From an uncultured Pontibacter sp. (GTDB lineage: Bacteria; Bacteroidota; Bacteroidia; Cytophagales; Hymenobacteraceae): DNA of 64,000 bases. The position numbers and the translations under genes were made by a program. Of the stretch, positions 1 to 64,000 are shown one piece after another. Positions within the stretch are counted from its first letter, which is position 1. Every line of letters starts with the position of its first letter. The notes beneath the pieces were generated by a model. The model was given only the letters and a program-made list of their open reading frames with translations, searched no databases and had not been told where the DNA came from. The stretch spans positions 1,319,523 to 1,383,522 of the forward strand of contig NZ_CANMNI010000001.1 of NCBI RefSeq assembly GCF_947499215.1, given 5' to 3'.

Positions 1-239
1 TTTTTAGCAATTTCATTTATAGCCTTTACTCTAATTTCAAATGGGTTGCCATCTATATTAAGTACTTCTTTTACTAAATACTTCTGCTCTCCTAACACAT
101 CAGTTAAAGAAGCCACCCCATCATTTATTAAAATTAAATCAAAACTTTTTTCTGATTGACTTGCTACTGAAAATAGAAAGTCTTTAAGAAATGGAATGTT
201 ACTTGGAAAGATAACGGCTACAAGTGCAGTATCAACCAT
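1..239 (-). CDS. glycosyltransferase-like protein, N-terminal fragment (gene runs off the left edge)
   Basis: Reverse-strand ATG at 237-239, open to the window edge. Hand translation MVDTALVAVIFPSNIPFLKDFLFSVASQSEKSFDLILINDG... resembles the N-terminal segment of GT2-type transferases. Lies in a polysaccharide locus. Confidence 0.45.
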   Translation of the reverse strand, partial: MVDTALVAVIFPSNIPFLKDFLFSVASQSEKSFDLILINDGVASLTDVLGEQKYLVKEVLNIDGNPFEIRVKAINEIAK

Positions 240-268
240 TTTTTGCTGATATTAAATTATATATCTTA

Positions 269-910
269 CTAAAGTTGTTTAAGCACTTTCGCAGGAATAC
301 CTACAGCTAATGCATTTGACAGCAAATCCTTTGTTAATACAGCTCCTGCTCCTAGAATGCTATTGTCTCCTATATTTAAATACTGTAATACAGTAGAATT
401 AACACCTAATAAATTTCTATCCCCAATTATGACACCACCACTAATATTAACCCCTGGATTAATTACATTAAAGTTTCCAATTACAGAATCATGACCTACA
501 GTTGAACTTAGATTAAAAATATTGTATGACCCTATCTTTATATCTACAGTAAACACACACCCTGCAGTTATAATATTTCCATTTCCTATTTTTATGGACT
601 TACTACTGCCTGTGAAAGTGGGATGTATTAAATTAGGAAAGTTAAAACCATTATACTTATCAATGATTTCACTGTTCTTCTTAGGGTCACCAATACCGAG
701 GAATAATGCTATATCTTCACTAACGGGGTTATTATCTCTGAGAAATTCAGATTCGTCTAAAACTGGCCATTCTTGACCATCAGCAAATATATTCTTCAAC
801 TGAGGCTCATAATCAATAAAGCCTTTAAAATCATATATACCATGTATATCGAATAATAGCCTCAAAACTTCTTTTGCGAACCCGCCTGATCCAATTATAT
901 ATGCTTTCAT
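269..910 (-). CDS. sugar N/O-acetyltransferase, NeuD/PglD-type (hexapeptide-repeat left-handed beta-helix)
   Basis: 213-aa ORF. N-terminal MKAYIIGSGGFAKEV Rossmann-like segment, then an imperfect hexapeptide-repeat C-terminus (IGxxxxIxxxxxV...). Directly downstream of a DegT aminotransferase. Confidence 0.8.
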   Translation of the reverse strand: MKAYIIGSGGFAKEVLRLLFDIHGIYDFKGFIDYEPQLKNIFADGQEWPVLDESEFLRDNNPVSEDIALFLGIGDPKKNSEIIDKYNGFNFPNLIHPTFTGSSKSIKIGNGNIITAGCVFTVDIKIGSYNIFNLSSTVGHDSVIGNFNVINPGVNISGGVIIGDRNLLGVNSTVLQYLNIGDNSILGAGAVLTKDLLSNALAVGIPAKVLKQL

Positions 911-915
911 AATTT

Positions 916-2073
916 TTATAACCTAACGCTACTCGGAATATTAACTAACCTTTCCTCAATCCACTTGCTTACAGTTAAATCATCATGTAGGCAATCTTGG
1001 AACATCGGCAGCTTATGCATCAACGACCATGCTGGGCGAGACATCACTCCATTACTGTTCACTTCCGTCAAAAATGAATCACGTGCTTCTCTGTCTTTCA
1101 GTAGAATTGAATTTAACCAATAGTTGGCCTTCGCATCTGATTTTTCTGTTACAAATTCTATTCCTTCTACCTCCTCAAAGAAATTTTTATAATTTTCAGC
1201 TAACTCCCGCTTATTTTCTACGAAAGCATCCAACTGCTCCAGTTGGGCGCAAGCCAGTGCCGCATTTAGATTAGGCATGCGATAATTGTAGCCAATATGA
1301 TCGTGATTAAACTCCCAAGCATGCGGCATTTTCGCCTGTGTGGTTAGGTGCTTAGCAAATTTAGCTATACTTTCATCGTTGGTTACGATGGCACCACCAC
1401 CACCACAGGTCACCGTCTTATTGCCGTTGAAACTGAAAGTACCCAACAAACCGAAGTTGCCTGTATGCATACCTTTATAATAGCTGCCCAAAGACTCTGC
1501 TGCATCCTCCACTAAAGGAATATTCCACTTAGCACAAATCTCTGCTATTTGCTCTATCTCACATGGAAACCCAAAAGTATGCATGGGTACACAAGCGGCA
1601 ATCCGGTTTCCTGTTTTGCTGTTTATAGTTACCCCATCTTCTTGCTTCCCGTATTGCTGTAAAAAGCTTTCCAGTTTATCAGCTGACAAGCCCAGTGTCT
1701 TTCTATCTATATCCAGAAAAACAGGCATAGCTCCTATATAACTGATGGCGTTTGCAGTAGCAATAAAAGTCAAATCCTGAGAAAGCACCTCATCCCCTTG
1801 CTTTACACCCGCTACTATAAGTGCCATATGTAAAGCTGCTGTCCCATTTACAGTGGCAATAGCATATTTTGCCCCTGTGATTTCCTGCATCATTTCTTCA
1901 AAGCGATTCACATAAGCGCCAATAGAAGAAACGAAAGTGGAGTCAATGGCATCTGCTACATACTTTTTCTCATTCCCAATAAACCTTGGCTCATGTAGTG
2001 GGATGAAGTCCTGATTCGGAAATTGAGATTTTATATACTGTATGATGTGGCCATACTTAGAAGGCTGCCCCAT
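916..2073 (-). CDS. DegT/DnrJ/EryC1/StrS-family PLP-dependent sugar aminotransferase
   Basis: 385-aa ORF with typical family segments (VNGTAALHMAL, EDAAESLGS, FSFNGNKTVTCGGGGAIV with the candidate PLP lysine). Confidence 0.9.
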   Translation of the reverse strand: MGQPSKYGHIIQYIKSQFPNQDFIPLHEPRFIGNEKKYVADAIDSTFVSSIGAYVNRFEEMMQEITGAKYAIATVNGTAALHMALIVAGVKQGDEVLSQDLTFIATANAISYIGAMPVFLDIDRKTLGLSADKLESFLQQYGKQEDGVTINSKTGNRIAACVPMHTFGFPCEIEQIAEICAKWNIPLVEDAAESLGSYYKGMHTGNFGLLGTFSFNGNKTVTCGGGGAIVTNDESIAKFAKHLTTQAKMPHAWEFNHDHIGYNYRMPNLNAALACAQLEQLDAFVENKRELAENYKNFFEEVEGIEFVTEKSDAKANYWLNSILLKDREARDSFLTEVNSNGVMSRPAWSLMHKLPMFQDCLHDDLTVSKWIEERLVNIPSSVRL

Positions 2074-2111
2074 AAAGAAAGTTCTTAAGTTTGATTATCT
2101 GAAGCAACAGA

Positions 2112-3145: not shown

Positions 3146-4144
3146 TTATAAAGTAACCTTATCAGCACTCCTTTTATACCAATTATAAGCTATTCCTAAA
3201 CCTACAAGTACTGAAAAAGCTGGGGCATACCCTATTAGATTATTGGCTTTGCTTATATCTGCCAAACTATGTCGTACATCACCCTTGCGCTCCTCTTTGT
3301 ATTCAGGACTTAGCGTTATACCTGCGATTTCTGTAATCCTGTTCCACAGTTGGTTCAATGTGGTACGCTCACCAAAGGCAATATTTACTACCTCGTGTTC
3401 AGCTATACCTTCAGCCAACATGGCCTTGACATTAGCTTGCACGGCATTTTCCACGAAGGTGAAGTCCCGGCTTGTCTCACCGTCCCCATTAATATAAGGT
3501 GTCTTGTTCTCTAGTGCTGCTTCTATAAAAAGCGGTATTACTGCAGCGTAAGGTCCCTTCGGGTTCTGCTTCGGCCCGAAGACGTTGAAGTAGCGCAGAC
3601 CGACGGTGTGGAAGCCGTAGGTCTTGGAAAAAACGCTCGCGTAGAGCTCGTTCACGTACTTGGTCACGGCGTAGGGAGACAGCGGGCTGCCGATCTGATC
3701 CTCTATTTTCGGCAGGCCCGGGTGGTCGCCGTAGGTAGAGGAACTTGCGGCATACACCATTCGCTTAACCCCCGCATCGCGTGCCGCCACCAGCATGTTC
3801 AGAAAGCCGCTGATGTTAACGTCATTGCTGGTGATCGGGTCGTTGATGGAGCGGGGAACAGAGCCCAGCGCTGCCTGATGCGAGACATAATCCATTCCCT
3901 CCAAGGCTCGCTTGCAGGTATCCAGATCGCGGATGTCGCCCTCCATCAGCTCGAAGGCCGGGTTGGACCTGAACTCCTCGATGTTGGCGTGGGAACCCGT
4001 GGAGAAGTTGTCGAGCACGCGCACCTTCCCAGCTCCGTACCTGAGCAGGTACTCGACGATGTTGGAGCCGATGAAGCCCGCCCCGCCCGTGACGAGGAAG
4101 GTGCTCTGGCTTAACTCTGCTGTGTGGTATTTGGTTTCGTACAT
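3146..4144 (-). CDS. UDP-N-acetylglucosamine (or -glucosaminuronate) 4-epimerase, WbpP/TviC family
   Basis: 332-aa ORF with FLVTGGAGFIGSN, SPYAVTKY and a DGETSRDF segment typical of the WbpP/TviC/CapD-like epimerase family. Its 5' two-thirds is GC-rich and its 3' third AT-rich. Confidence 0.85.
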   Translation of the reverse strand: MYETKYHTAELSQSTFLVTGGAGFIGSNIVEYLLRYGAGKVRVLDNFSTGSHANIEEFRSNPAFELMEGDIRDLDTCKRALEGMDYVSHQAALGSVPRSINDPITSNDVNISGFLNMLVAARDAGVKRMVYAASSSTYGDHPGLPKIEDQIGSPLSPYAVTKYVNELYASVFSKTYGFHTVGLRYFNVFGPKQNPKGPYAAVIPLFIEAALENKTPYINGDGETSRDFTFVENAVQANVKAMLAEGIAEHEVVNIAFGERTTLNQLWNRITEIAGITLSPEYKEERKGDVRHSLADISKANNLIGYAPAFSVLVGLGIAYNWYKRSADKVTL

Positions 4145-4241: not shown

Positions 4242-5549
4242 TTACAGTCTTGCGTCGGAGAGCTCTTTGGGGAGCACGCCCTTCACGTCGTAGATCACGG
4301 CCTTTTCCTTGCAGAGCCTGCTCAGGTCCAGTGTTTTGAACTCGTTGTGGGAGACGGCCATGATGATGGCGTCGCAGTCGCTCACGCCGTTAAGCTCCTT
4401 CACCGAGTCCCAGCCGTACTCGTGCTTCACCTCAGCGGGCTCCGCCCACGGGTCGTATATGGTGATGTTGGTGTCGTACTCCCTGAGCGTGCTGAGGATG
4501 TCGACCACCTTGGTGTTCCTTACGTCCGGACAGTTCTCCTTAAAAGTAATACCAAGTACAAGGATGTTGGCCCCCTTCACCGGGATGTCCTTCTTAACCA
4601 TGAGCTTGATCACCTCGTGGGCCACATACTCGCCCATACCGTCGTTGAGCCTGCGGCCGGCGAGGATGATCTCGGGGTGGTAGCCGGCCTCCTGCGCCTT
4701 CTGGGCCAGGTAGTAGGGGTCCACGCCGATGCAGTGGCCGCCCACCAGCCCGGGCCTGAACTTGAGGAAGTTCCACTTCGTGCCGGCCGCCTCGAGCACC
4801 TCGTCCGTGTCGATGCCCAGCCGGTTGAAGATCTTGGCCAGCTCGTTGACGAAGGCGATGTTGATGTCGCGCTGCGCGTTCTCGATCACCTTGGCCGCCT
4901 CGGCCACCTTGATGGAGGCCGCCTTGTGGGTGCCCGCCGTGATCACGGCCCTGTAGAGCCGGTCCACCTGCTCGGCCGCCTCGGGGGTGGAGCCGGAGGT
5001 GATCTTGAGGATCTTGGCCACCGTGTGCTCCTTGTCGCCCGGATTGATGCGCTCGGGCGAGTAGCCGGCGAAGAAGTCCTCGTTAAATTTTAAGCCCGAC
5101 ATGCGCTCGAGCACCGGCACGCACTCCTCCTCGGTTACACCCGGGTACACGGTGGACTCGTAGATGACGATGTCGCCGCGCTTGAGCACCTTGCCCACCG
5201 TCTCGCTGGCCTTGTAGAGCGGCGTCAGGTCCGGGCGGTTGTTTTTGTCCACCGGCGTGGGCACGGTCACGATGTAGTAGTTGCAGCCGGCGATGTCCCC
5301 GAGCCTGTGGGAGCAGTAGAGCCCCTTTTCGAGCGGCGCGTTTACCAGCACGGCCCTCAGATACTCGTCCTCCACCTCCAGCGTGCGGTCGTGCCCCTCG
5401 TTGAGCTCCCGCACGCGGCCCTCGTTTATGTCAAATCCAACAGTGGCGTACTTCTTTGCAAACTCAACGGCTAAGGGCAAGCCCACATAGCCTAGGCCTA
5501 TAACGGCAATCTTTGCATTTTCTATACCTGTAGTATCTGTTCCTGACAT
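4242..5549 (-). CDS. UDP-N-acetyl-hexosamine 6-dehydrogenase (nucleotide-sugar dehydrogenase, TviB/WbpO/Cap5O-like)
   Basis: 435-aa ORF with [17 protein letters not shown]-binding motif and [11 protein letters not shown] catalytic-cysteine motif. Very high GC3 except for the first ~40 codons. Confidence 0.9.
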
Positions 5550-10136: not shown

Positions 10137-10895
10137 CTACAGGGAATCTATCTCCCTTACTTCTATTTCTTCTAAGATAATCTCCGACACCTTCTCCATC
10201 TTGCCTGCTTCGAAGGCGCGGTCGTAGTTCTCGAGTGGTGTATCCTCCTTTAAGGTATAATTCACATAATCTTGAAACAGGACACCGCCGACGGTGCGGG
10301 GGTTGATGGCTTCGCGGAAGCGGGTGCCGCCGTCGTTTTCCTGAAATGAGTAAGCGAGGTAGTCCATGGTGTTGCGCTCTTGGTGGAACCAGTAGACGTA
10401 CACATCCTGATAACCCTCACCGCCACCTTCCTGCGCAAAGGTCACCCGCACTTTGTGGTAGGGTTCGCCTTTGATGGTCATCTCACCAAGATACTCTTTG
10501 CGAACTGCCTCATCATTGAGGGCATAAGGCAACAGGGCAAAGTAAATAACAGAGTTTACAGAGGCAGTAAAGGCTTTTTGCCTTTCTTCAGGCAGCTCTA
10601 CCTCCACATCATTCACGGTACGGTTAAAGCCACTATTGCGCCACACATCGCGCACCTGCTGGCCAGTAGAATCGGTGAAAGTGCGGCTATACACAAACAC
10701 TCCGCCATCGCGCAAGGCACGGTACTGCCTGTCCCGAAACATAAAGCTGATCGCGCTTTTCTCATACCGCTCCCCCCCATGCGCCGCGATCGCCTCATCC
10801 ACGATCCGCTGCGCATCCGGCTGCTTTTCGGTTTGGCAGGAGGTAATGGTGAAAAGAAATAGGGCTAATAAGGTATAGAGAGCTTTGTATAGCAT
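10137..10895 (-). CDS. hypothetical lipoprotein
   Basis: ORF 10137-10922. The internal ATG at 10893-10895 gives the lipoprotein signal MLYKALYTLLALFLFTITSC. No recognised catalytic motif. Confidence 0.6.
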   Translation of the reverse strand: MLYKALYTLLALFLFTITSCQTEKQPDAQRIVDEAIAAHGGERYEKSAISFMFRDRQYRALRDGGVFVYSRTFTDSTGQQVRDVWRNSGFNRTVNDVEVELPEERQKAFTASVNSVIYFALLPYALNDEAVRKEYLGEMTIKGEPYHKVRVTFAQEGGGEGYQDVYVYWFHQERNTMDYLAYSFQENDGGTRFREAINPRTVGGVLFQDYVNYTLKEDTPLENYDRAFEAGKMEKVSEIILEEIEVREIDSL

Positions 10896-13673: not shown

Positions 13674-13943
13674 GAAAATCTATTTTAAAGGTGTCTTACA
13701 GGCCGGGATGATTAATACAGAAAAAAACCAGTTGACCATTGCAAATATATGTACATACATTTAATATAGGTGCATGGTTCATCTTTTTACTCTTTTTATT
13801 CTGGCTTTTACCCGCTGATTTTGTGCCGATACTCAAATTATAGGATAATCACTATTTACAACTTGATTTTAATAATATTTATTTCAAATATTACTTTTCA
13901 ATGCAGTATTGCGACTAACTCTAAACCTTATACCTATCCCATT

Positions 13944-14951: not shown

Positions 14952-14989
14952 AGAGTAGCTTTTATACCTGCCATAGCTTATCTTTAGGT

Positions 14990-20747: not shown

Positions 20748-20884
20748 GTCGGCAAAAGGGTGATACCGGCCTGCTTTACGCATTTGATTGCCCGCTAGTT
20801 GGAAATTGCAAATAGCAGATCATTAGGAGCACAGGGGAGAAGGCAGTCTGGAGCAGGTAGGTATAGCTGCGTTCTTGGGAAAAC

Positions 20885-22505: not shown

Positions 22506-22544
22506 TAAGCACCAATTGGGGACCTAGCCTATACCTATACAAAC

Positions 22545-46269: not shown

Positions 46270-46271
46270 TC

Positions 46272-47411: not shown

Positions 47412-47484
47412 AAAAAAAAGTAAAAGCTATCCGGTTTGTCCCAAGGTATACGAGGCATAAGCCCGCAACCAACTTGACAAAAAT

Positions 47485-51006: not shown

Positions 51007-52099
51007 GGGTTTGAAGCTTTAGGCTGACCTTATAGGAGTCGGCTGTTTCAGTAATGGACAGTTGGTGCTTTTCGGGATAAAGCAGGGCAAGGCGTCGCTT
51101 CGTGTTCTCTATACCTATACCTGCGGTTGCAGGGCGCTCTTTATTGGTAGCGGGCTTGCTATTTTCCACTTCAAATAGGATGGTTTGGCGCTCCTGCTTT
51201 AGATGGATGTGCACCCACGCTTTGCCAATGGTAGCGTTAACCCCGTGCTTAAAGGCGTTTTCGACAAAGCTGATGAGCAAAAGCGGCACGATAGGCGTTT
51301 CGCTATTTTCGATGTGCTCGAAATTGTAGCTGATAACCACGCGGGTATTGTGATGGCGAATCTGCTCCAGATTGATGTAGTCGGACAGAAACTCCACTTC
51401 CCTCCCGACAGGTATGCGCTTGCCGCTGCTCTCATACAACGAAAAGCGCAGCAAGTCCGACAGCTTGAGTACCACCTGCCCTGCCCTCTCGTTCTCCATC
51501 ACCATACCGTAAATGTTGTTGAGCGTGTTGAACAGGAAGTGCGGGTGAATCTGCGCTCGAAGGAAGTTCAGCTCCATTTCGGTTTTCTCTTTCTGCAGCA
51601 TTGCGTTTCGTTTGTTGGCTTCGTAGTTTCTTTTGAAGTAGTAAAAGGCAGCGGCGATCACGTTGGGTAGCAAGACGAGCGACAATACCCAAATAAGATT
51701 CATATAGGAAAATATGTCTGCTACCGACCTTAGCTTATTTGCCACAGCGAATTGGGGAAGCCGACCCGTGTCTGGAAAAAGATTTACTAAGGGGTCTAGT
51801 GGCAGTTTAATGACCAATACACTTGCCACATAAGCAGCTAGTAAGACTATTGAAAAAATTACCCAACTTCCAGAACTAATAAGATGTGCGCCAAACCTTA
51901 CCACTGCCAGATGGTTCGCATATACCAGTAAGACAAGTATGGTAGTATAAATTAGGGTGGGCATAACAAAAAATGTTGTCCCAAACATAAAGGCATTCCC
52001 ATTCAGGCAAATCAAAAAAATTAGTCCCCAGACAATGATGTCAAGTGCTTTACCTTTAAGAGAAACCATCCGAACCAAACTTCCAGCCACTGCAGTCAT
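50999..52099 (-). CDS. sensor histidine kinase, LytS/YehU-type (His_kinase PF06580-like)
   Basis: 366-aa ORF with multiple N-terminal transmembrane helices, LRAQIHPHFLFNTLNNI and an N-box ENAFKHG. Overlaps the regulator start by 8 nt. Confidence 0.85.
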   Translation of the reverse strand: MTAVAGSLVRMVSLKGKALDIIVWGLIFLICLNGNAFMFGTTFFVMPTLIYTTILVLLVYANHLAVVRFGAHLISSGSWVIFSIVLLAAYVASVLVIKLPLDPLVNLFPDTGRLPQFAVANKLRSVADIFSYMNLIWVLSLVLLPNVIAAAFYYFKRNYEANKRNAMLQKEKTEMELNFLRAQIHPHFLFNTLNNIYGMVMENERAGQVVLKLSDLLRFSLYESSGKRIPVGREVEFLSDYINLEQIRHHNTRVVISYNFEHIENSETPIVPLLLISFVENAFKHGVNATIGKAWVHIHLKQERQTILFEVENSKPATNKERPATAGIGIENTKRRLALLYPEKHQLSITETADSYKVSLKLQTHD

Positions 52100-52181
52100 A
52101 TAAATGTAAGAGAAGCATATACCTGCAGCTAGGGTAAGCCGCAGGTATAGGTATAAGAAAAGCTAATATAGCGAAAATGGC

Positions 52182-54623
52182 TTAATTGGCTCTATTGACC
52201 ACGTCTTCGTTGCCCAGCTTTTTACTGGCTGCCGACTTCACGGTTTGCTTGCCGAACCTATATACCAATCCCAGCTGCACCCGCCTGGCATCATCATAGC
52301 TCACGGAGCGGGTCTGAATGTTTGAGCTGTTCACCACTCCGCCGTTCACGCTGCCCCTGAACACATCGAGAACCGCCAGGGTATACTGCAGCTGCTTGTT
52401 GAATAAGTTTCCTTTCAGAGCTACGCGGGTATAGTGGTTGCCTACTAATTCAGCTAAGCCATAAGTAAACGGCCCTGTGTAGTTGAAACCAGTTTCCAGT
52501 TTCAGGTCGCGCGGCAGCGAGAAGCTGTTTTGCCATCCTATCGCATGGTAAAAGCTAGTAGGTACAGCCAAGCCGCCAAACTCTTCCTGCTTCATGGCAG
52601 AGGTCATCAAAGCGCCCATACCGAACACACTGCCCGACCACCTGTTGGTCACTTGGTAGCTGTAGTTGACATTGCCCCCGACTGATGTCATGTCGAAGTT
52701 CCTGTTTTTCCAGTGAGCCACCCCGTCCTGGTTAATGGGCAGGTTCAGGAACACGTTCTGCTCCTGCCTGTACTCCAGCTCCACATAGAGGTTGTTTTTG
52801 TAAATGCCGTTCAACGAGAAAGTATGCGTGTACTGCGGCAGCAAAGCGGGGTTTCCTTCTTCTATGGTAAAATCGTCGAGATAAACCCGGTAAGGGGTGA
52901 GCACACTAAAACTTGGTCGCTGCACCGTTTTGCGATAATTCAACGTCATGACCAAATCATCTGTCATGGGGCGGCTCAACATCAGCGTTGGGAAAAAGTC
53001 GGTGAAAGTACGATCAACAGGCTTGCGCTTGTTCACTTTGTCCTCTACTTGCATGGTGGCGTGCTCTACCCGCATACCTGCCCGCAGGGTGGTTTTGCCT
53101 AGCTGTTTGTCCAGCGTGGTGTAGCCTGCCAGAATGTTCTCCGTAAACACGTTCTCAAAGCTAAAAGCTTCGTCGCGGATAAAGCGTCCATCCTGCAAAT
53201 AGTCTTGCGTCGGCTGCGTGCGGTTGCCTGACATGGTCATCTTGCCCCCCGCTGTCACATTCCAGCTGTTCCGAAAAGGGAGCTCCCAATCTATCTGCCC
53301 GACCATGATGTTGGCCCTGCTCTGATTGTCATTTCTCACCCTTCTCAAAGGCCCCAACAAGCTGCCATCAGGACCGTACATGTTTTGCGACAGCATCTCG
53401 TTGGTGGTGTTGCCTTGAATCGGGGTATAGGTGAAGATAAGGTCCAGCGACTTGCCCAGGCTATCGAGCTTCCCCGTGTAGTAAAGGCCGTAAGTCTGTA
53501 CATGCCTAGTGGAATATTCCCGCCCGTCTGCCAGCAAGGTGGAATCTGTTGTACCGTTGAGCTGTTCCACAAAATCAATTCGCTTGCTAAGAGTAGTATT
53601 ATTGTCCACTCTTGTCTGCACATAGTTAGCTTGTATACCCAGCGCGTGCTTATCAGACAGCTTATACTCAAACATACCTCTCACCGAGGGTATGGTGTTA
53701 CTGTACCGAAATAAACCATATTCGTGCAGCACAGGGCCGCTGCCATTTAGGGGCACTCTATAGCCATCGTGCTCGGAGTGTGTCAGTGATTTGTTGTAGT
53801 TCAGGTTGATGTTGCTTACCCATTTTTGCTGGCGGTAGGTAAGCGAGGTGCCTACCAGTCCCCTGCCCCTGATGCCCTGCGACACGGTACTTCTGGCTGA
53901 ACCTGTTATACCTAAGGTGCGGGCTCTCTTGGTAGTGATGCTGATAACGGTACTGATGTTGGCGGGGTAGCGGGAAGATGGATTCGTGATAAAATCAATC
54001 TTCTCGATTTCGTCGCCTGTCATGGTTGCCAGCACAGATTGAAGCGTGGCGCCAGGCATTTGCACTTTATCCAACAGAATCAGAACGCCGCCTTTTCCAT
54101 TTACCGACACGCTCTCGCCCTGCACCTGCACAAAGGGCATGGCCCTAAAAATATCCAGCAAGTTATCGCTCTGAAATGTGCTCGCTTCTACGTTCAAGGT
54201 ATAGCGGTCGGGGCTGCGCTCCACCACCTGCCGTTGCGCCTGTATCAGCACTTCGCCTAACTGGTTTGTGTTTCGCTGCAGCTGCAAAACGCCAATATCA
54301 GGTGCAGGTTGCTCCGCCTGTATGCGGACCGTTTCAGAATAAGCTGGCTGAAAACCAACATACCTTACCGCTACAAGATACTCTCCATAAGGTAGGTTCT
54401 CGAATACAAATAGTCCGCGCTCGTCAGTTACTTTGCCCTTTACCAAGCTGCTGTCTGTTGCTGTCAATAGGGTTACGGTGGCAAAGGGGGCTGCATTAGC
54501 AGCGTCTTCTTTCACTGTGCCGCTTATCTTACCTTGCGCCAACACAGGTATAGCTGTCACAAGTGACAGGCAGATGCAGACGAGAAGAAAAATCAGGTGT
54601 TTGGGAGAAAAGGTCTGTTCCAT
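52182..54623 (-). CDS. outer-membrane beta-barrel protein (TonB-dependent-receptor-like, N-terminal CarboxypepD_reg domain)
   Basis: 813-aa ORF with a signal peptide, GKISGTVKE...PFATVTLL carboxypeptidase-regulatory-like fold, a plug-like region and a long beta-barrel ending ...YRFG. Confidence 0.85.
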   Translation of the reverse strand: MEQTFSPKHLIFLLVCICLSLVTAIPVLAQGKISGTVKEDAANAAPFATVTLLTATDSSLVKGKVTDERGLFVFENLPYGEYLVAVRYVGFQPAYSETVRIQAEQPAPDIGVLQLQRNTNQLGEVLIQAQRQVVERSPDRYTLNVEASTFQSDNLLDIFRAMPFVQVQGESVSVNGKGGVLILLDKVQMPGATLQSVLATMTGDEIEKIDFITNPSSRYPANISTVISITTKRARTLGITGSARSTVSQGIRGRGLVGTSLTYRQQKWVSNINLNYNKSLTHSEHDGYRVPLNGSGPVLHEYGLFRYSNTIPSVRGMFEYKLSDKHALGIQANYVQTRVDNNTTLSKRIDFVEQLNGTTDSTLLADGREYSTRHVQTYGLYYTGKLDSLGKSLDLIFTYTPIQGNTTNEMLSQNMYGPDGSLLGPLRRVRNDNQSRANIMVGQIDWELPFRNSWNVTAGGKMTMSGNRTQPTQDYLQDGRFIRDEAFSFENVFTENILAGYTTLDKQLGKTTLRAGMRVEHATMQVEDKVNKRKPVDRTFTDFFPTLMLSRPMTDDLVMTLNYRKTVQRPSFSVLTPYRVYLDDFTIEEGNPALLPQYTHTFSLNGIYKNNLYVELEYRQEQNVFLNLPINQDGVAHWKNRNFDMTSVGGNVNYSYQVTNRWSGSVFGMGALMTSAMKQEEFGGLAVPTSFYHAIGWQNSFSLPRDLKLETGFNYTGPFTYGLAELVGNHYTRVALKGNLFNKQLQYTLAVLDVFRGSVNGGVVNSSNIQTRSVSYDDARRVQLGLVYRFGKQTVKSAASKKLGNEDVVNRAN

Positions 54624-54725: not shown

Positions 54726-54763
54726 ACAAAAAAAGCCGCCACCCCTGAGCGGGGTAGCGGCTT
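54726..54763 (-). terminator. rho-independent terminator (homologous to the one at 50203-50238)
   Basis: aaaaaagccgccacccc-tgag-cggggtagcggctt, with the T-run on the minus strand. Lies 3' of the deoxynucleoside kinase gene. Confidence 0.75.
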
Positions 54764-54790
54764 ATACCTATACGAAACTTTTGTCTTGAT

Positions 54791-56266: not shown

Positions 56267-56729
56267 AGTTTTGTCTTTTAGTTTTAGCTGGAAGCCGCAT
56301 TTGCCTGTCTGTCAGGTATAACAGCTCCTCCAAATGAAATACCTGTTTTAGGAACTATGGGTTTCGAATGCTTCGACTGTGCCATCCAAAAAGAATAAAA
56401 CTTAACACACTCTCTTCAAGCGTTTTTGTTCACAGAAAGCGGCTTTTACTACAATTCAACTGACCTAGCTGGTATAAGCTTATCCATACTGGCGCATGCC
56501 CTGTAGTTATTGTTGCCATAATTTTTATATGAGGGCTCAGCAGTCGGAAGAACCGCTCCATAAGCAGTGAAAGGGTAAATCAAGCTACATCTCCCGAAAG
56601 CACACACTGAAGATTCATATGGCTTCAGATTGTTTAACTATTCTAGCGTCGCCTCGTTTCTAATAAAATAAGGATGAGTTAGCTTTTAACTCATCTTAGA
56701 AGTCTATCAACTACTTAAAACCTAAAGCT

Positions 56730-56909: not shown

Positions 56910-56922
56910 AAAGGTATAAACT

Positions 56923-56972: not shown

Positions 56973-57001
56973 ATACAGTACGTAAACCCTTCAAGGTATA
57001 C

Positions 57002-57634
57002 CTAACGCTGCTCCCGCATGTGGTTATACCTGTCTTTGGCGTCGCGGCTCTTGCGCAGCGTGTTAAACTCCACTTGTAGGGCGGCCAATTTCATTTTATC
57101 GCTGTTGCTCATTTGGCTGAGCACTTGCTGCTTGCGATCGCTGAGCTGCAGGTATACATGCTCGGCATAGTCCCAGTCACGCAGACTCCAGTCGGAGCGC
57201 TGTGCCCGTACGTTTTCCATGAACCGGATAAAAGTGCTTCGCAATTGGCTGGCTTTTAACTGCCCGATCTTATTTGTGCCAGCTAGGCGACGCTCCCAAG
57301 TGGCAGCCGTTTCGCGGTTAAGCGGCTGCCCGTAGCGCTCTTCCTTCTCGGCTTCCCACTCGTTGTAGCGCCCCTTCAGTTCACCGTACTCCTGCTTCGA
57401 GGCTTCCGTCATTTGGCTGCTGCCCCGTTCCAAGCTTTGCGTCTTGGCTTTAAACTCTTGCTTGATCAGAGGCCATTCAGCCCGTGTTACACTATCACCT
57501 TGGCTCACTCTTTTGTTCATCCAAGTGCGGAAATCTTCGAGGTCCTGCTCCAGTTTCGATTTGGTCTGCGCCTGCGCACTAAGCGTGCACATTACTAAAA
57601 AAAGTGTCAGTGCGGCTAGTAAGGTCTTTTTCAT
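57002..57634 (-). CDS. hypothetical secreted helical protein
   Basis: 210-aa ORF with signal peptide MKKTLLAALTLFLVMCTLSAQAQ and a charged, helix-prone composition. Confidence 0.65.
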   Translation of the reverse strand: MKKTLLAALTLFLVMCTLSAQAQTKSKLEQDLEDFRTWMNKRVSQGDSVTRAEWPLIKQEFKAKTQSLERGSSQMTEASKQEYGELKGRYNEWEAEKEERYGQPLNRETAATWERRLAGTNKIGQLKASQLRSTFIRFMENVRAQRSDWSLRDWDYAEHVYLQLSDRKQQVLSQMSNSDKMKLAALQVEFNTLRKSRDAKDRYNHMREQR

Positions 57635-57876: not shown

Positions 57877-60315
57877 ATGCGTAAAACAAGGGACAACTTC
57901 CACGAAACCGTTGTTTCTATACCTAACCGGGACGAAATCAAACTGAGCGCCGAGCGCTTCCCATTTAAGGCGACACTCAGCCTGTCGCCGCTTATCTCCT
58001 ACTGGGAGAACAAGATAGAGACTGACCCGAACTGCAATGTGGCCCGTGTAAACGAGCTGGCCAGCCTACTGCGCAAAAACCCTGAGCTACTGGAGCCCAT
58101 CGAAGACGTTTCTATTATAGAAAAACACATCGACACGGTGGACATCCTGATGGAGGACATCTTCCCGAGTGCCCTCTGGGAGAACGACCTGCGCGCCACG
58201 GTGCGACCCTTTCACTTCGACAGCTTTTACTCCACACCCCGCCTTGAGGAGCTCGACCTGCTGGGCGGCGGCAACTATACCGAGAAGCTCAATCTCAACC
58301 TGAAAACGCTTATGTTCAGGCAGACCCTGTCGGCCTATACCCTGATTCTGGAGAAGTTCTACAACGCCAACTTTGTGGTGGACGAGCCTTTTATCTTCAC
58401 CATCAAAGATAAATTCACCAAGCTCGACCGGCACTACAAACTCAGCGTCGACCTGAAATTCATGAAAGTGAAGGCCAAGGGAGAGATCAAGAAACTGAAA
58501 ACGCAGGAGATCAATTTCCTGATAAACCGCTACAATGATCTGGATCTGTGGATGAAGAAGCTGCCACCCGAGAACTTCGAGTTCAGCGGCTTTGCCATTT
58601 ACGACTTCACGGACGTGACCAACGAAGAAACCATTTCCTCGCTACGCTACGACCTGTTGGATCAGGATTCGGTGACAACTCAGGAAGGCTTCGAGGACCT
58701 GCAGCAGAAACTGCGGGTGCTGTTCGGACTGCCCGGCCTGCGCCTCGGCCTTGCCTCCTGCCCCGCACAGCAGGAGCTTGACACCAACTACGCCCGCAAA
58801 ACGTGGAACGGCTTGGTGCTAACCAAGACCTGCCACGTAAAACTGGAAGATCTGAATGATTCTATTTATGCTCCGGTAGTAAGCAGTGGCAATACCATTG
58901 TGGTGGACGACTTGGAGCTGCTGGAAGAGCCGGGTATTTTGGAGAAGGACCTGATCAAGACAGGGGTGCGTAACCTCATCATCGCCCCTTTGCACTATGA
59001 GGGCAAAACCATTGGCATGCTGGAACTGGCCTCGCCTATACCCGGTGAGCTGAACGCCCTGTCCACCATCAAACTTAAGGAAATCCTACCCCTCTTTGCC
59101 CTTGCCCTTAACCGTATGCTGGAGGAGTTGCGCAGCAGCATCCAGAACATCATCAAGGAGAAATACACGGCCATACACCCGATCGTGGAATGGCGCTTCA
59201 CGCAGGCGGCCATCAACCTCCTCGACAAGATGGACCGTAACGTACCAGCAGAGATAGAACCCATCGTGTTCCGCGACATCTACCCGCTTTACGGGGTTTC
59301 CGACATCCGAAGTTCCGCCTCAGAGCGCAACAAGGCCATACAGGGTGACCTGCTCGATCAGCTGGTGCTGGCCAAAGAAGTGATCTTGGCCGCCAAGGAT
59401 AATTTGCCGCTCTCCATACTGGATGAGCTGGTGTACAAAATTGACAAGTACTCGCAGAGCATGGTGCAGGAATTGAGTTCTGGCGATGAAGCAACCGTTC
59501 TGGAGTTTTTACGCACCGAGATAGAACCGCTTTTTAACCACTTTGGCCCAAAATATCCTTCTACACAGAAAGCGATTGAGAATTACCGTAAAGCCACCAA
59601 TAACCCCAACCATGTCGTGTACAACAAGCGACGGGCCTACGAGGAAAGCCTATACCTGATCAACGACACCATCTCGAGGTTTTTGGACCGGGAGGAGGAG
59701 AAGGCGCAGCATATCTTCCCACACTATTTTGAGAAGTACAAGACAGACGGGCTGGAGTATAATATTTACATAGGGGCCTCGCTACTGAACAACGGCCACT
59801 TTGAGGAGATATACCTTAAAAACATGCGTCTGTGGCAGCTCATGCTCACCTGCGAAATCGCACGCCGCATACACAAGCTGCGCGCCAACCTCAAACTTCC
59901 GCTCGAGATTACGCAGCTCATTCTCGTGCATAGCAGCTCGATCTCTATTCGTTTCCGTTTGGATGAGAAGAAGTTTGACGTGGAGGGTGCTGACAATATC
60001 CGCTACGAGATCATCAAGAAGCGCATCGACAAAGCCACCCTGCGCGGTAGCGAAGAGCGTTTGACACAACCCGGCAAAGTAGCCATTGTCTATACCCAGC
60101 CACGCGAGGCGCAGGAATATATGCGCTATATCGACTTTCTGCAGGCAGAAGGCTATGTAGAATCGGAAGTAGAGGACCTAGAATTAGAGGAATTGCAGGG
60201 TGTGCAAGGACTGAAGGCGCTACGCATCAGCGTTAATTTCCAAGAGCAGCTCCGCCACGATATTGATGCCGGCGACGAGCTCCTGCAGATAGCCCGAACA
60301 GCCGCCTTAAACTAA
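57877..60315 (+). CDS. large GAF-domain protein with no recognisable output domain
   Basis: Track ORF starts at GTG 57835, but I prefer ATG 57877 (MRKTRDNF...). The central segment GVRNLIIAPLHYEGKTIGMLELASPIPGELN is GAF-like. The N- and C-terminal ~350-aa regions match nothing I recognise. Confidence 0.75.
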   Translation: MRKTRDNFHETVVSIPNRDEIKLSAERFPFKATLSLSPLISYWENKIETDPNCNVARVNELASLLRKNPELLEPIEDVSIIEKHIDTVDILMEDIFPSALWENDLRATVRPFHFDSFYSTPRLEELDLLGGGNYTEKLNLNLKTLMFRQTLSAYTLILEKFYNANFVVDEPFIFTIKDKFTKLDRHYKLSVDLKFMKVKAKGEIKKLKTQEINFLINRYNDLDLWMKKLPPENFEFSGFAIYDFTDVTNEETISSLRYDLLDQDSVTTQEGFEDLQQKLRVLFGLPGLRLGLASCPAQQELDTNYARKTWNGLVLTKTCHVKLEDLNDSIYAPVVSSGNTIVVDDLELLEEPGILEKDLIKTGVRNLIIAPLHYEGKTIGMLELASPIPGELNALSTIKLKEILPLFALALNRMLEELRSSIQNIIKEKYTAIHPIVEWRFTQAAINLLDKMDRNVPAEIEPIVFRDIYPLYGVSDIRSSASERNKAIQGDLLDQLVLAKEVILAAKDNLPLSILDELVYKIDKYSQSMVQELSSGDEATVLEFLRTEIEPLFNHFGPKYPSTQKAIENYRKATNNPNHVVYNKRRAYEESLYLINDTISRFLDREEEKAQHIFPHYFEKYKTDGLEYNIYIGASLLNNGHFEEIYLKNMRLWQLMLTCEIARRIHKLRANLKLPLEITQLILVHSSSISIRFRLDEKKFDVEGADNIRYEIIKKRIDKATLRGSEERLTQPGKVAIVYTQPREAQEYMRYIDFLQAEGYVESEVEDLELEELQGVQGLKALRISVNFQEQLRHDIDAGDELLQIARTAALN

Positions 60316-62176: not shown

Positions 62177-62203
62177 AAAAGCGCCCCGTGGGGCGCTTTT
62201 TTT
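62175..62203. terminator. bidirectional rho-independent terminator
   Basis: aaaaaagcgcccc-gt-ggggcgcttttttt, between convergent genes. Confidence 0.85.
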
Positions 62204-62230
62204 ATACCTGCTTTTGTATACCTGCTGGTT

Positions 62231-62482
62231 TTACTTCAGGCTGTTCACCAACTGCACATACTGTGCGCGGGCATCCTCTTGGCTTGTTCCTTCCAGATTC
62301 TTCCAAGCATCCCATTTGGCTATGTTTTTAAAATCGAAACCACCCGGGCGCTCCGTATTCACATCACCTTCCGTGGCCTGCTTGTACAAACTGTAAAGCT
62401 GCAGCAAAATGTTGTTCGACGGACGCTCCGTTAGTTGCTTGGACTGCACTACCGCCTGCTCAAATTCTTCTTGTGTTGCCAT
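62231..62482 (-). CDS. acyl-CoA-binding protein (ACBP)
   Basis: Start set at ATG 62480-62482. LQLYSLYKQATEGD ... KWDAW are the hallmark ACBP motifs. Confidence 0.85.
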   Translation of the reverse strand: MATQEEFEQAVVQSKQLTERPSNNILLQLYSLYKQATEGDVNTERPGGFDFKNIAKWDAWKNLEGTSQEDARAQYVQLVNSLK

Positions 62483-62603
62483 AGTTCTTCTATTGTTGTT
62501 TTGCTGTAACAAGGTATAAAAAAACACGCTGCATGCATAACTTTTATTTAATTAAATGTTTGCTGGATTTTGTTTATTTTAGATCGATCAATTGATACAC
62601 ACT

Positions 62604-64000
62604 ATGAAAAAAGCACAGATTAAAGCAACAGCCCCGGCCTTGTTACTCTCCGCCTGCCTCGTAGCGGGATCCGGCTGCAGTTCCAGCCAACCCACAGCTA
62701 CAGCCACTACCGCAGAGCAGACCACTGAAGCAGCTGTTAGCACCGCCCAGCCACAGTTACCACAGCCTCCTGCGGCTGCCAAAAAGCCGAAAGAGCTTAC
62801 TGCCCACGGCCATACTCGCGTGGATAACTACTACTGGCTGAACGAGCGTGAGAACCCGGAAGTGATCGCCTACCTTAACGCCGAGAACGATTATACCAAG
62901 CAGATTATGGCCGATACGGAAGACCTGCAGGAGAAACTCTTCAACGAGATTGTGGGGCGCATCAAGCAGACCGACGAGTCAGTGCCCTTCAAGAAGAATG
63001 GTTACTTCTACTATACCCGTTTCGAGGCAGGCAAAGAGTACCCGATCTATGTCCGCAAAAAAGGGAGTCTGGATGCCAAAGAAGAGGTGATGGTGAATGC
63101 CAACGAGCGTGCCGAGGGTAAGAGCTATTATGCCGCCGCTGGTATGAACGTGAGCCCCAACAACCGCCTGCTGGCTTTTGGCGAGGACACCGTGAGCCGT
63201 CGCCAGTATACCATCCGCTTCAAAGACCTGCAGACCGGCGAGCTGCTGCCTGACCGCATACCTAACACCACGGGCGGCGCTGTGTGGGCTAATGATAACA
63301 AGACCGTATTCTATACCATGAAGGACCCTTCGTTGCGCTCTTTCAAAATCTTCCGCCATACCTTGGGCACACCCACCTCGCAGGACAAAGAGGTGTACCA
63401 CGAAGCCGACGAAACCTTCAGCACCTTTGTGTATAAAACTAAATCCGAGAAATACATTATCATCGGCTCCAGCAGCACTTTGTCGCAGGAGTACCGCTTC
63501 TTGGATGCCGCCAATCCAACTGCCAGTTTAAAGATCATTCAGCCGCGTGAGCGAGGGCTAGAGTACGACGTCGACCACTTCGGTGACAACTTTTACATCC
63601 GTACCAACAAAGACGGCGCCACCAACTTCAAGCTGATGAGGACCCCCGTAGGCAAAACCACCAAGGAAAACTGGAAAGAGGTGATCCCGCACCGCGCCGA
63701 CACCTACTTGGAGGGCACTGAGATCTTTAAGGATCACCTCGTGCTGCAAGAGCGAAAAAATGGCCTAACGCAGTTGCGCATCAAGAAGTGGAATGATCCG
63801 AAAACCGATTACTATGTGGATTTTGGGGAAGAGGCCTACACCGCCGGCATCAGCGTCAATCCAGACTTCGACAGTAAGGTGCTGCGCTATGTGTACAGTT
63901 CTCTCACCACCCCAAGCTCCACGTTCGACTACAACATGGAGACAAAGCAGAAAACCCTGCTAAAAGAACAGGAAGTAGTGGGCGATTTTGACAAGAACAA
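62604..64000 (+). CDS. oligopeptidase B / prolyl oligopeptidase family (S9A) lipoprotein, 5' partial (runs off the right edge)
   Basis: Not in the ORF track because there is no stop in the window. Hand translation from ATG 62604 gives MKKAQIKATAPALLLSACLVAGSGC... then HGHTRVDNYYWLNERENPEVIAYLNAENDYTK, the conserved S9A N-terminal propeller entry. Confidence 0.85.
   Translation, partial: MKKAQIKATAPALLLSACLVAGSGCSSSQPTATATTAEQTTEAAVSTAQPQLPQPPAAAKKPKELTAHGHTRVDNYYWLNERENPEVIAYLNAENDYTKQIMADTEDLQEKLFNEIVGRIKQTDESVPFKKNGYFYYTRFEAGKEYPIYVRKKGSLDAKEEVMVNANERAEGKSYYAAAGMNVSPNNRLLAFGEDTVSRRQYTIRFKDLQTGELLPDRIPNTTGGAVWANDNKTVFYTMKDPSLRSFKIFRHTLGTPTSQDKEVYHEADETFSTFVYKTKSEKYIIIGSSSTLSQEYRFLDAANPTASLKIIQPRERGLEYDVDHFGDNFYIRTNKDGATNFKLMRTPVGKTTKENWKEVIPHRADTYLEGTEIFKDHLVLQERKNGLTQLRIKKWNDPKTDYYVDFGEEAYTAGISVNPDFDSKVLRYVYSSLTTPSSTFDYNMETKQKTLLKEQEVVGDFDKN

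Follow-up and report, generated by a model that had tools for sequence, protein, structure and literature searches.

The dense iteration of one short word along a stretch of chromosome from an uncultured Pontibacter sp. raises the question of what force put it there and keeps it in place. The stretch, hereafter the window, comprises 64,000 nucleotides (positions 1319523-1383522 of contig C1) of a six-contig assembly of 4.31 Mb, with 49.5% GC and a completeness of 99.99%. The word, with AGGTATA as its core and AGGTATAG(C) as its best definition, has a threshold-like specificity, is symmetric between strands, is independent of coding, is preferentially conserved between species, switches in place to other dialects in related lineages, and is depleted in atypical DNA. 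From this we infer a reader that acts during the uptake or the recombination of DNA, and we tentatively favour the view that the word is a recognition signal for conspecific DNA, maintained by drive, of the kind of the DNA uptake sequence (DUS) and the uptake signal sequence (USS).

The window contains 38 copies of the 8-mer CAGGTATA/TATACCTG, where dinucleotide-preserving shuffles give 1.51 +/- 1.42 (maximum 5), and 93 copies of AGGTATA, where the same shuffles give 4.81 +/- 2.57. An earlier note, made by eye on the sequence, had counted 38 and about 90, and the recount bears it out. Its division of the 8-mer into 15 forward and 23 reverse copies has to be corrected to 14 and 24 (the 7-mer divides into 44 and 49), and 16 of its 20 example coordinates are exact, three being off by 1 and one off by 10 (29617 should be 29607). 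It had rightly noticed that two genes end in the same CAAGGTATAGC (24113-24124 and 26515-26526, TAG being the stop codon in both), that the first 9 kb are poor in the word (two copies of the 8-mer, three of the 7-mer), and that a GC-rich patch lacks the 6-mer core (there is no GGTATA in 3550-5425). Among the 93 cores, 42 are part of the 8-mer AGGTATAG; 73 lie inside long open reading frames (ORFs), and the other 20 in intergenic DNA or at the edge of an ORF. The core follows a C in 38 copies, an A in 36, a T in 18, and a G in a single one.

The enrichment is genome-wide and not limited to the window: the density of CAGGTATA is 0.52/kb in the genome and 0.59/kb in the window. Counted on both strands, the genome has 2,225 copies of this 8-mer, 5,748 of AGGTATA, and 9,467 of GGTATA, and its commonest 6-, 7-, 8-, 9-, 10-, and 11-mers are all versions of one word. 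The 8-mer AGGTATAG has 2,823 copies, 21x over base composition, and longer versions reach 41x (AGGTATAGC) and 68x (CAGGTATAGC). A Markov correction, which the note had proposed as a check, leaves the excess of AGGTATAG in place (21x, 35x, 21x, and 9.9x at orders 0, 1, 2, and 3). With a model of maximal order each extension base adds just 1.1-1.45x, but these ratios are small because the sub-words are themselves enriched, and the model therefore understates the effect and does not explain the word.

The sequence logo gives the consensus h-AGGTATA-[G>C,A]-c, with seven near-invariant bases (A-G-G-T-A-T-A). On the 3' side of the core G is preferred over C and A, which are about equal, T is far rarer, and a weak C follows; on the 5' side stands C, A, or T, and almost never G. 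The best-defined word is hence AGGTATAG(C), of which CAGGTATA is one flank variant. It is not its own reverse complement, and the palindromic form AGGTATACCT has just 88 sites in the genome. Variants with a single mismatch at one of the six inner positions sum to about 1.45x background, against 21x for the perfect word, and at the outer positions only the transition neighbours are moderately raised. Single mismatches thus stay near background, and recognition therefore looks all-or-none. None of the single-mismatch precursors of AGGTATAG is strongly depleted in the genome-wide variant counts, which speaks against a footprint of very short patch (VSP) repair.

The position of the copies relative to genes shows that the word is set at the level of DNA. 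Genes were called with our own ORF heuristic, which gives about 3,500 long ORFs, or 87.5% of the genome length. The 8-mer occurs in each frame in which it makes no in-frame stop and on both gene strands; coding DNA holds 79% of the copies, at a density of 0.58/kb against 1.1/kb in non-coding DNA. When synonymous codons were shuffled genome-wide, keeping the proteins and the codon usage, the genic 8-mer still exceeded expectation 16x and the 10-mer 36x. An origin in codon or dipeptide preference or in composition is ruled out by this excess and by the presence of the word in all open frames, in agreement with the frame independence that the note had claimed. The flanks carry about zero information beyond 1-2 bases, and this, together with the 79% of copies in coding DNA, also rules out that the word is a piece of a longer repeat, whether a repetitive extragenic palindrome (REP) or a miniature inverted-repeat transposable element (MITE).

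Along all large contigs the density is even, at about 130 cores per 100 kb, and forward copies are about as frequent as reverse ones on every contig. The share on the G-rich strand, as defined by GC skew, is 52-54%, which follows arithmetically from the three G's of the word and a GC skew of 3%. With this share, and with splits of 75/80 and 141/144 in the two dialects B and C described below, a replication-polar signal of the type of the FtsK-orienting polar sequences (KOPS) or the SpoIIIE recognition sequences (SRS) is ruled out. The note's observation that polarity is absent therefore stands, although the lack of polarity does not by itself exclude a signal of Chi type (PMC5959072). Gaps between copies are near exponential and mildly clustered (coefficient of variation 1.19), and genome-wide there is no excess of short convergent, divergent, or hairpin-forming pairs, except for the overlapping palindromic form. 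Two overlapping forms, AGGTATACCT and AGGTATAGGTATA, recur throughout the genome. The density peaks in the 20 bases past stop codons, at about 4x the coding density, and 62 ORFs end in AGGTA-TA[G/A], where the word overlaps a TAG or TAA stop. A placement like that of promoters or terminators can be discarded: the distance to start codons is variable, hairpin pairs are rare, and a general excess after stops is all that is seen.

Two clusters of the core stand out in this distribution. The densest of the genome is a perfect hexamer microsatellite, (TATACC)x14 at C1:211455-211540, which is the 6-mer core in tandem and lies just 3' of the stop codon of a 370-aa minus-strand ORF (C1:211724-212836); it might stem from slippage of overlapping copies. 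The second densest has 7 cores in 420 bp (C1:1156744-1157166), from the end of a small acetyltransferase-like ORF to the 5' end of comEC, and most of its sites are kept in three other species of clade A (see below). The same place is unexceptional in dialects B, C, and D, and we therefore treat the cluster as a coincidence.

DNA that looks foreign is poor in the word. Five word-poor regions of 24-40 kb correspond to capsule or polysaccharide loci, an island with restriction-modification and metal-efflux genes, and the ribosomal-protein/rpoBC region, and the word is absent from a 12-kb integrase-linked SusC/D locus. Windows of 5 kb with low GC hold 2.6-3.2 cores against about 7 elsewhere, despite the AT-rich word. 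The start of our window (1-13000) is a case in point: of the 93 cores 5 fall in these 13 kb and 88 in the 51 kb that follow, a poverty that the note had already remarked for the first 9 kb. This segment is a low-GC, MITE-rich polysaccharide locus inside a 34-kb region of low density (C1:1296000-1330000, GC 0.41-0.42), which is devoted to polysaccharide synthesis and includes a Wzz/GNVR tyrosine-kinase gene at window positions 5599-7953. Its poverty in the word is consistent with recent acquisition, or with recombination from outside the dialect. The ribosomal-protein/EF-G/rpoBC region (C2:520000-560000, GC 0.42-0.44) has 16 cores in 40 kb, and this near absence shows that the word can also be kept out by strong constraint on codons or protein. 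No obvious prophage was seen in the low-density regions of the genome, and the taxonomy lists no phage named after Pontibacter or Hymenobacter.

A comparison with other species, which the note had proposed, revealed dialects of the word that differ between species and stand at orthologous sites. The closest relatives of the ABC-transporter gene of the window are those of P. virosus (98% amino-acid identity), P. aquaedesilientis, and P. roseus, all within Pontibacter (Hymenobacteraceae, Bacteroidota). In 21-kb syntenic loci the top 7-mer is AGGTATA in six species, AAGTATA in about ten, and AACTATA in three, and four have no such word. Whole-genome counts in 63 Pontibacter species distinguish dialect A (AGGTATAG; 12 species with 2,800-5,200 copies per genome, of which the present genome has the lowest number), dialect B (AAGTATAA; about 29 species, 1,900-7,000 copies), and dialect C (AACTATAG; 7 species, 5,200-8,200 copies, one per 550 bp), and in several species the words of both B and C are high. 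Reversed-word controls give about 100-200 copies per genome. Samples of 40-80 kb revealed two weaker dialects, D (TATATATAA in genomes G002 and G057) and E (GGTATAAA in G060); the TA runs of D stop at 8-9, and it is therefore not a microsatellite. No enriched word was seen in samples of 80 kb each from G035 and G054, nor in loci of 14-22 kb from P. ummariensis, P. beigongshangensis, and P. qinzhouensis. One dialect-B species (G031) has an array at C1:1944098-1945495 of at least 22 units with a period of about 66 bp, which looks CRISPR-like and whose repeat holds the dialect-A word AGGTATAG.

All dialects keep TATA and a leading A or G, and they differ from one another by single bases. Dialects B and C are as sharp as A and symmetric between strands (75/80 and 141/144, in 200 kb each from a single replichore stretch). 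A tree built from the ABC transporter recovers A and C as monophyletic clades, with B as its backbone. Judged from these sequences, the dialects follow the phylogeny around a common invariant TATA core; on this one-gene tree B is, tentatively, probably the ancestral dialect, and the mixed B and C species (G041, G065, G069, G070, G074, P. fetidus, and strain H259) look like intermediates. P. roseus and P. virosus belong to clade A, P. vulgaris and P. ruber to clade B, and P. burrus to clade C. Seven other genera of the family show no enrichment of the dialect-B word. Samples of 22-60 kb from sister genera show unrelated words: ACCTAGGG has 40 copies, at 34x, in G077 (L115-L117), and AAACGCTAT is enriched 13x in G075 (L109-L111). 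The sample from Hymenobacter sediminis (L023) has an abundant GGGGTAGC-like word (GCTACCC/CTACCCC). The phenomenon may thus be family-wide, with very different words. The present genome (G000) has a secondary excess of GAGGTAG/CTACCTC (640 copies, 414 expected under the maximal-order model) and of words containing GTAG, and these resemble the words GGGGTAGC and CGAGGTAG of the Hymenobacter samples.

The aligned sites of these species directly show a lineage-specific force on DNA, not on protein, because sites are preferentially kept and because dialects switch in place by synonymous change. The six relatives of clade A have just 77-80% DNA identity to the window, and synonymous sites are near saturation among the clade-A species compared. 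Yet 55-75% of the AGGTATA sites of the window are intact at the aligned position. Of the remaining 7-mers 17-24% are intact, and of phase-matched 7-mers at a distance of 12 or 21 bases 13-26%. At positions that clade A retains throughout, such as 24511, 25378, 29042, 29234, 35925, and 38514, genomes of clade B bear AAGTATA in place, usually by a synonymous switch from ACC to ACT in a Tyr-Thr pair, and species without an enriched word have assorted synonymous codons. Within the gene of the ABC transporter, words have arisen in clades B and C where clade A lacks them, sometimes through amino-acid changes. The ratio of perfect to one-off words suggests a scaled advantage per site of about 3-4, a value within the range implied for the highly iterated palindrome HIP1 of cyanobacteria, below that of USS and DUS, and above that of Chi.

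What might read the word was sought among the genes with named Pfam models. The genome encodes ComEC, DprA, and a ComEA-like protein with a triple helix-hairpin-helix (HhH) motif, as well as a Vsr-family nuclease and a pair of AddA-like and AddB-like genes (C1:130413-137926); it has no RecC. Neither a Dam-type (PF02086) nor an N4/N6 (PF01555) methylase was found, the search for methylases being limited to the families named. Matches to PF02384 are two type I systems and a fused N6-methylase/type IIG-like enzyme of 1070 aa (C2:356282-359494), and there is one C5 methylase with a nuclease-like gene adjoining it; except for the type IIG-like enzyme, the methylases are of type I or in apparent mobile restriction-modification loci. 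The 1070-aa enzyme adjoins a motif-free island with metal-efflux genes and occurs in 8 of the 63 genomes, one of which (G054) has no enriched word seen; as it is shared with just seven other Pontibacter species (homologues of 59-71% identity), it is best regarded as a mobile restriction-modification element. The Vsr family is uncorrelated with the motif, being present in G035 and G054 and absent from several motif-rich species. All 63 species, also those without an enriched word seen, have an intact AddB, which is 75-89% identical throughout; six scattered, mostly conservative substitutions are fixed and private to clade A, and no relative by sequence was found in the PDB on which a Chi pocket could be mapped. 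In sum, none of ComEC, DprA, the ComEA-like protein, DUF5689, Vsr, the type IIG methylase, and AddB co-varies with the motif across the 63 genomes, and the gene search that the note had proposed brought up no competence receptor, Vsr-like nuclease, or orphan methyltransferase that could be linked to the word.

We rank a DUS/USS-like drive first because of the threshold specificity, the symmetry between strands, the accumulation where constraint allows, the retention of sites, the depletion in foreign DNA, and the dialects with an invariant core. On this reading, AGGTATAG(C) would be the local dialect of a genus-wide recognition word. Its reader would be a conserved, vertically inherited, and highly specific protein acting on double- or single-stranded DNA, with a specificity that drifts by single bases between lineages. 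Fragments of conspecific DNA that bear the word would be preferentially taken up, recombined, or both, so that alleles with the perfect word would be transmitted more often. The drive would then fill the positions that protein function permits, such as spacers, stop codons, and synonymous positions in dipeptides like Tyr-Thr and Gly-Ile. The route would have to be a pilus-independent one of Bacteroidota type. Riemerella, of the same phylum, transforms without a pilus by means of ComEC, DprA, a triple-HhH protein, a DUF5689 surface protein, and an outer-membrane barrel (PMC8459023), and in Pontibacter ComEC, DprA, the triple-HhH protein, and outer-membrane proteins might serve together with some receptor. 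The presence of the first three, all required for transformation in Riemerella, supports the uptake reading, and so does the excess of 21-68x, which is on a par with that of HIP1 and nears that of USS. More than five dialects in one genus would imply a fast-evolving reader, and a surface receptor would suit this better than AddB, which is highly conserved. The window encodes, on the minus strand at 52182-54623, an 813-aa outer-membrane protein with CarboxypepD_reg and OMP_b-brl_3 domains, and an inverted pair of the word (52118-52149) lies just downstream. A CarboxypepD_reg domain and an outer-membrane barrel are the features named for RA0C_RS04915 of Riemerella, which is required for transformation there; the likeness is one of domains.

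Our confidence in a DUS/USS-like drive is kept low because the known receptor machinery is absent, no gene correlates with the word, and transformation is unreported in the family, and several observations weigh against it. The genome, complete as it is, gave no match to Secretin, no match to T2SSE or a pilus ATPase that passed the cut-off, and no sign of an N_methyl prepilin, which is why we consider the receptor machinery of DUS and USS to be missing. ComEC, DprA, and the triple-HhH protein occur in all 63 species, also in those without an enriched word seen, and being universal they cannot correlate with the motif. DUF5689 is patchy (29 of 63 species) and unrelated to the presence of the motif, and its copy in the present genome lies in a SusD locus. 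Inverted pairs of terminator type, typical of the DUS of Neisseria, are rare, and the spacing is not more even than random, unlike that of USS. With an estimated scaled advantage of about 3-4, the enrichment also falls short of that of DUS and USS. In the literature, searched by sequence and by topic, there is no mention of this word or of any iterated motif in Pontibacter or Hymenobacteraceae, and, as far as is known, none of natural transformation in Hymenobacteraceae. As to the competence genes themselves, two genomes (G046 and G011) have in-frame stops in ComEC, DprA, and the triple-HhH gene together, which reflect either assembly errors or decay; G011 is among the genomes with the highest dialect-A counts.

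Other explanations account for part of the same evidence. The note's own suspicion of a repair or modification process can be put as a gene-conversion drive, in which a motif-specific nickase or methylase would mark a strand and mismatches within a word or beside it would be repaired towards the strand bearing the word. Such a drive, which we consider unlikely, would produce more mutations that create words and fewer that destroy them, site by site, and we hold this effect to be just as unlikely. It would explain well why specificity is all-or-none over 7-8 asymmetric bases, as is typical of enzymes of restriction-modification type, why sites behave independently, with near-exponential spacing and no evenness, and why dialects shift one base at a time. 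Type IIG/IIL enzymes of the MmeI family change specificity in a similarly stepwise manner. A Vsr-family nuclease and several methylases are encoded, and redirected mismatch repair could, we think, readily yield an excess of 20-60x. Yet no precursor is depleted as in VSP repair, the Vsr family does not follow the motif, the only candidate methylase for an asymmetric site is the type IIG-like enzyme of 8 genomes, G054 included, and there is no Dam-type or PF01555 methylase, the others being of type I or apparently mobile. Moreover, the conservation of HIP1 sites has been held to favour selection over replenishment by biased repair (Xu et al., PMC5861425), and sites are conserved here too. This last point is the strength of another reading, by which the word is a binding site of an abundant nucleoid, repair, or segregation protein, kept by weak selection as proposed for HIP1 by Xu et al., with dialects reflecting co-evolution. 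The preferential conservation among species near synonymous saturation, the re-tuning of sites in place at a change of dialect, and the depletion of the word in foreign-looking DNA all suit it, and the unrelated words of sister genera (ACCTAGGG at 34x in G077, AAACGCTAT at 13x in G075, and the GGGGTAGC-like word of Hymenobacter sediminis) suggest a family-wide reader. We nevertheless find it improbable: no candidate protein and no short-range regularity of spacing were found, several congeners with the same core genes seem free of any word of this kind in the DNA sampled, which would be odd for an essential chromosomal function, and it would be demanding for function alone to hold about 5,000-8,000 sites, each with a scaled advantage of about 3-4. 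The word is also non-palindromic, and orphan methylases like those of HIP1 were not found.

The word could also be the Chi sequence of an AddAB of Bacteroidota type, halting the degradation by AddAB and loading RecA, and dense sites on both strands might be favoured by the two-ended breaks that desiccation or radiation cause; on balance we find both the function and this rationale for its density very doubtful. AddA-like and AddB-like genes are present, the word is rare in foreign DNA, and the Chi of Bacteroides AddAB being unknown (PMC2887965) leaves room for such a role. Known Chi words are likewise short, asymmetric, species-specific, and over-represented, and in several species unskewed (PMC5959072). 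However, they are 4-8x over-represented, occur once per 3-4.5 kb, are GC-rich, and have a leading-strand skew in some species (PMC5959072), whereas the Pontibacter word is AT-rich and reaches 21-51x at one per 0.4-1.5 kb, several-fold above them. The benefit of an additional site would fall steeply with density, and a scaled advantage of 3-4 would be hard to reach. At least five dialects and an apparent loss in one genus also contrast with an AddB that is 75-89% identical, with 6 substitutions private to clade A, and species without an enriched word seen keep it intact. Finally, the excess might be a by-product of composition, of codon or dipeptide preference, of a dispersed repeat (MITE or REP), or of assembly. 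Modest maximal-order Markov ratios (1.1-1.45 per step) and the existence of REP and MITE families in the genome could be cited for it; the counts in all frames and on both gene strands, the doubled density in non-coding DNA, the 16-36x excess over synonymous shuffles, the uninformative flanks, and the occurrence of the word in dozens of independently assembled genomes, with differing dialects, refute it, and we give it practically no chance.

The individual copies in the window illustrate these properties and are given here by position, strand, and context. The word-poor first 13 kb hold the cores at 3317..3323 (-, CAGGTATAAC), 3404..3410 (-, AAGGTATAGC), 5523..5529 (-, CAGGTATAGA), 10253..10259 (+, AAGGTATAAT), and 10871..10877 (+, AAGGTATAGA). 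They are followed by cores at 13929..13935 (-, TAGGTATAAG), 14025..14031 (-, AAGGTATAGC), 14273..14279 (+, CAGGTATAGG), 14299..14305 (+, GAGGTATACC, the sole window copy preceded by G), 14714..14720 (+, CAGGTATAGG), 14963..14969 (-, CAGGTATAAA), 15103..15109 (-, CAGGTATAGC), and 16447..16453 (+, AAGGTATATG). Two overlapping cores on opposite strands make up the palindromic form AGGTATACCT at 18126..18135, and further copies are at 18211..18217 (+, AAGGTATAGA), 18813..18819 (+, CAGGTATACT), 19859..19865 (+, CAGGTATAGT), 19879..19885 (+, AAGGTATAGC), and 20859..20865 (+, TAGGTATAGC).

From there on, many sites can be followed in the six clade-A relatives and in a set of seven clade-B genomes. 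Conserved in all six are the cores at 23586..23592 (-, CAGGTATAGC), 24931..24937 (-, AAGGTATAGC), 25378..25384 (-, TAGGTATAGT; AAGTATA in 4/7 clade-B genomes), 26518..26524 (+, AAGGTATAGC; its TAG is the stop of ORF 26022-26525), 29042..29048 (-, TAGGTATAGA; AAGTATA, read as TATACTT, in 7/7 clade-B genomes, and TACACGT in the motif-less P. ummariensis), 29234..29240 (-, AAGGTATAGG; AAGTATA in 4/7), 29607..29613 (-, CAGGTATAGC), 29945..29951 (-, TAGGTATAGC), 35925..35931 (-, AAGGTATACG; AAGTATA in 4 clade-B genomes), 36564..36570 (-, AAGGTATACA), and 38514..38520 (+, TAGGTATAGA; AAGTATA in 4 clade-B genomes, and AGGTACA or AGGTAAA in motif-less species). Five of the six keep 24511..24517 (-, AAGGTATAGG; AAGTATA in 5/7 clade-B genomes), 35771..35777 (-, AAGGTATAAC), and 38429..38435 (+, CAGGTATAGT), and four keep 24116..24122 (+, AAGGTATAGC; its TAG is the stop of ORF 23473-24123), 26430..26436 (-, AAGGTATAGA), 28044..28050 (+, CAGGTATAGA), 28239..28245 (+, CAGGTATAGA), 28635..28641 (-, CAGGTATACG), 29629..29635 (+, AAGGTATAGC), and 29972..29978 (-, AAGGTATAGA). 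Three have the sites at 25577..25583 (+, CAGGTATACG), 32184..32190 (+, AAGGTATAGG, directly past the stop codon of the ABC transporter), 37997..38003 (-, CAGGTATAAA), and 38726..38732 (-, AAGGTATAAA), two that at 30294..30300 (-, CAGGTATAAC, intergenic), and one that at 22530..22536 (-, TAGGTATAGG). The copies at 21916..21922 (-, AAGGTATACT) and 23739..23745 (-, TAGGTATAGC) are not conserved in clade A, nor is 26378..26384 (+, AAGGTATACT), a lineage-specific gain or a loss elsewhere; those at 36587..36593 (+, TAGGTATAAC) and 37679..37685 (+, CAGGTATATC) are private to the present genome. In the same part of the window lie 24104..24110 (+, AAGGTATATC), 32295..32301 (-, CAGGTATAAA), 34360..34366 (+, AAGGTATACG; AAGTATA in 2 clade-B genomes), and 34757..34763 (-, CAGGTATAAC).

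The remainder of the window has cores at 42531..42537 (+, TAGGTATAGT), 42983..42989 (-, CAGGTATACA), 43107..43113 (-, AAGGTATAAG), 43196..43202 (-, CAGGTATACG), 43580..43586 (-, CAGGTATACG), 43638..43644 (+, AAGGTATAAA), 44534..44540 (+, AAGGTATACC), 45179..45185 (+, AAGGTATAAA), 46363..46369 (-, CAGGTATAGC), 46898..46904 (+, AAGGTATAAC), 47036..47042 (-, CAGGTATAGG), 47444..47450 (+, AAGGTATACG), 49670..49676 (+, AAGGTATACT), and 50483..50489 (+, CAGGTATAGC). Overlapping cores on opposite strands form AGGTATACCT again at 44142..44151 and 56994..57003, and two tandem cores overlap at 51110..51122 (-), in the AGGTATAGGTATA form with a spacing of 6. At 52118..52155 an inverted pair (52118 minus, 52143 plus) with an overlapping tandem copy at 52149 occupies the spacer between the outer-membrane barrel gene and a histidine-kinase gene; such pairs are rare genome-wide. 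Then follow 53907..53913 (-, TAGGTATAAC), 54197..54203 (+, AAGGTATAGC), 54546..54552 (+, CAGGTATAGC), 54763..54769 (-, TAGGTATAAG), 56314..56320 (+, CAGGTATAAC), 56912..56918 (+, AAGGTATAAA), 57025..57031 (-, CAGGTATAAC), 57150..57156 (+, CAGGTATACA), 57918..57924 (-, TAGGTATAGA), 59651..59657 (-, CAGGTATAGG), 59810..59816 (-, AAGGTATATC), 62203..62209 (-, CAGGTATAAA), 62217..62223 (-, CAGGTATACA), and 62512..62518 (+, AAGGTATAAA).

Words that saturate a genome are rare (DUS, USS, HIP1, and Chi), and each of them opened a view on how cells tell their own DNA from foreign DNA. We know of no such signal, uptake specificity, or Chi sequence in Bacteroidota, and what is new here is a genome-saturating recognition word in that phylum. 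Hymenobacteraceae might hold a new, vertically inherited system that reads sequence, a possibility we advance with caution: it could be a specificity of pilus-free uptake or of conspecific recombination, the first outside Proteobacteria, or a motif-directed gene-conversion drive. Since the specificity shifts by single bases within the genus (AGGTATAG, AAGTATAA, AACTATAG, TATATATAA, and GGTATAAA) and sister genera have words unrelated to these (ACCTAGGG and AAACGCTAT), the words could bar gene flow between species. A single genus with 63 sequenced species, five or more dialects, intermediates with two of them, and lineages without an enriched word seen amounts to an unusually rich natural experiment, and Pontibacter species are cultivable soil bacteria, which would help to find the reader. 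In practice, the words are markers that flag foreign DNA, as in the islands without them, and that may predict which species are able to exchange genes; their inclusion or avoidance is relevant to constructs for genetics in these bacteria.

Among the known systems, the note had likened the word to uptake sequences and to HIP1, and this is where it belongs. Like DUS and USS, it is short and non-palindromic, occurs thousands of times, roughly once per kb and on either strand, between genes and, in all usable frames, inside them, has a sharp specificity and dialects that follow the phylogeny around an invariant core (CTG in DUS, TATA in Pontibacter), is depleted in foreign DNA, and has altered protein sequences to fit it. 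The DUS of Neisseriaceae has eight dialects around its CTG (PMC3630211). Unlike DUS and USS, the Pontibacter word belongs to a member of Bacteroidota with no type IV pilus, secretin, or minor-pilin receptor of the ComP or ComN type, it has 7-8 bp instead of 9-12 and an enrichment of 20-70x instead of hundreds, and it shows few inverted pairs at terminators and a spacing no more even than random.

With HIP1 (GCGATCGC) it shares the form of a hyper-abundant octamer (15-300x for HIP1) found in all frames and in spacers, with sites kept within and between ORFs beyond the local background, with variants between lineages, and with loss in some of them. HIP1, however, is palindromic and read by two orphan methylases, whereas the word of Pontibacter is asymmetric and the methylase families searched gave no conserved orphan methylase. 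A periodicity of 10-90 kb is seen in HIP1; for the Pontibacter word the spacing was followed over short range, where it is random. The function of HIP1 is still debated, between nucleoid structure and transformation, and recent work ties it to the latter (PMC13756078). The word resembles Chi in being an asymmetric, species-specific, and over-represented motif in the size range of 5-8 bases, spread over the genome and missing from foreign DNA, with the conserved enzyme AddAB present, but its enrichment and density are 3-10 times those of any known Chi, it is AT-rich and without replication-oriented skew, and it has many dialects in one genus despite a near-invariant AddB. VSP repair (Dcm/Vsr, acting at CCWGG) offers a parallel in a bias of k-mers imposed on DNA by a sequence-specific enzyme, and a Vsr homologue is encoded here; its effects, though, are well under 2x and deplete a specific precursor, whereas in Pontibacter none is depleted and Vsr does not co-vary. 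The categories of uptake sequence, HIP1, and their rivals may in the end converge, and an iterated word with dialects throughout a genome points to a sequence-reading machinery of the DUS, Chi, or HIP1 kind.

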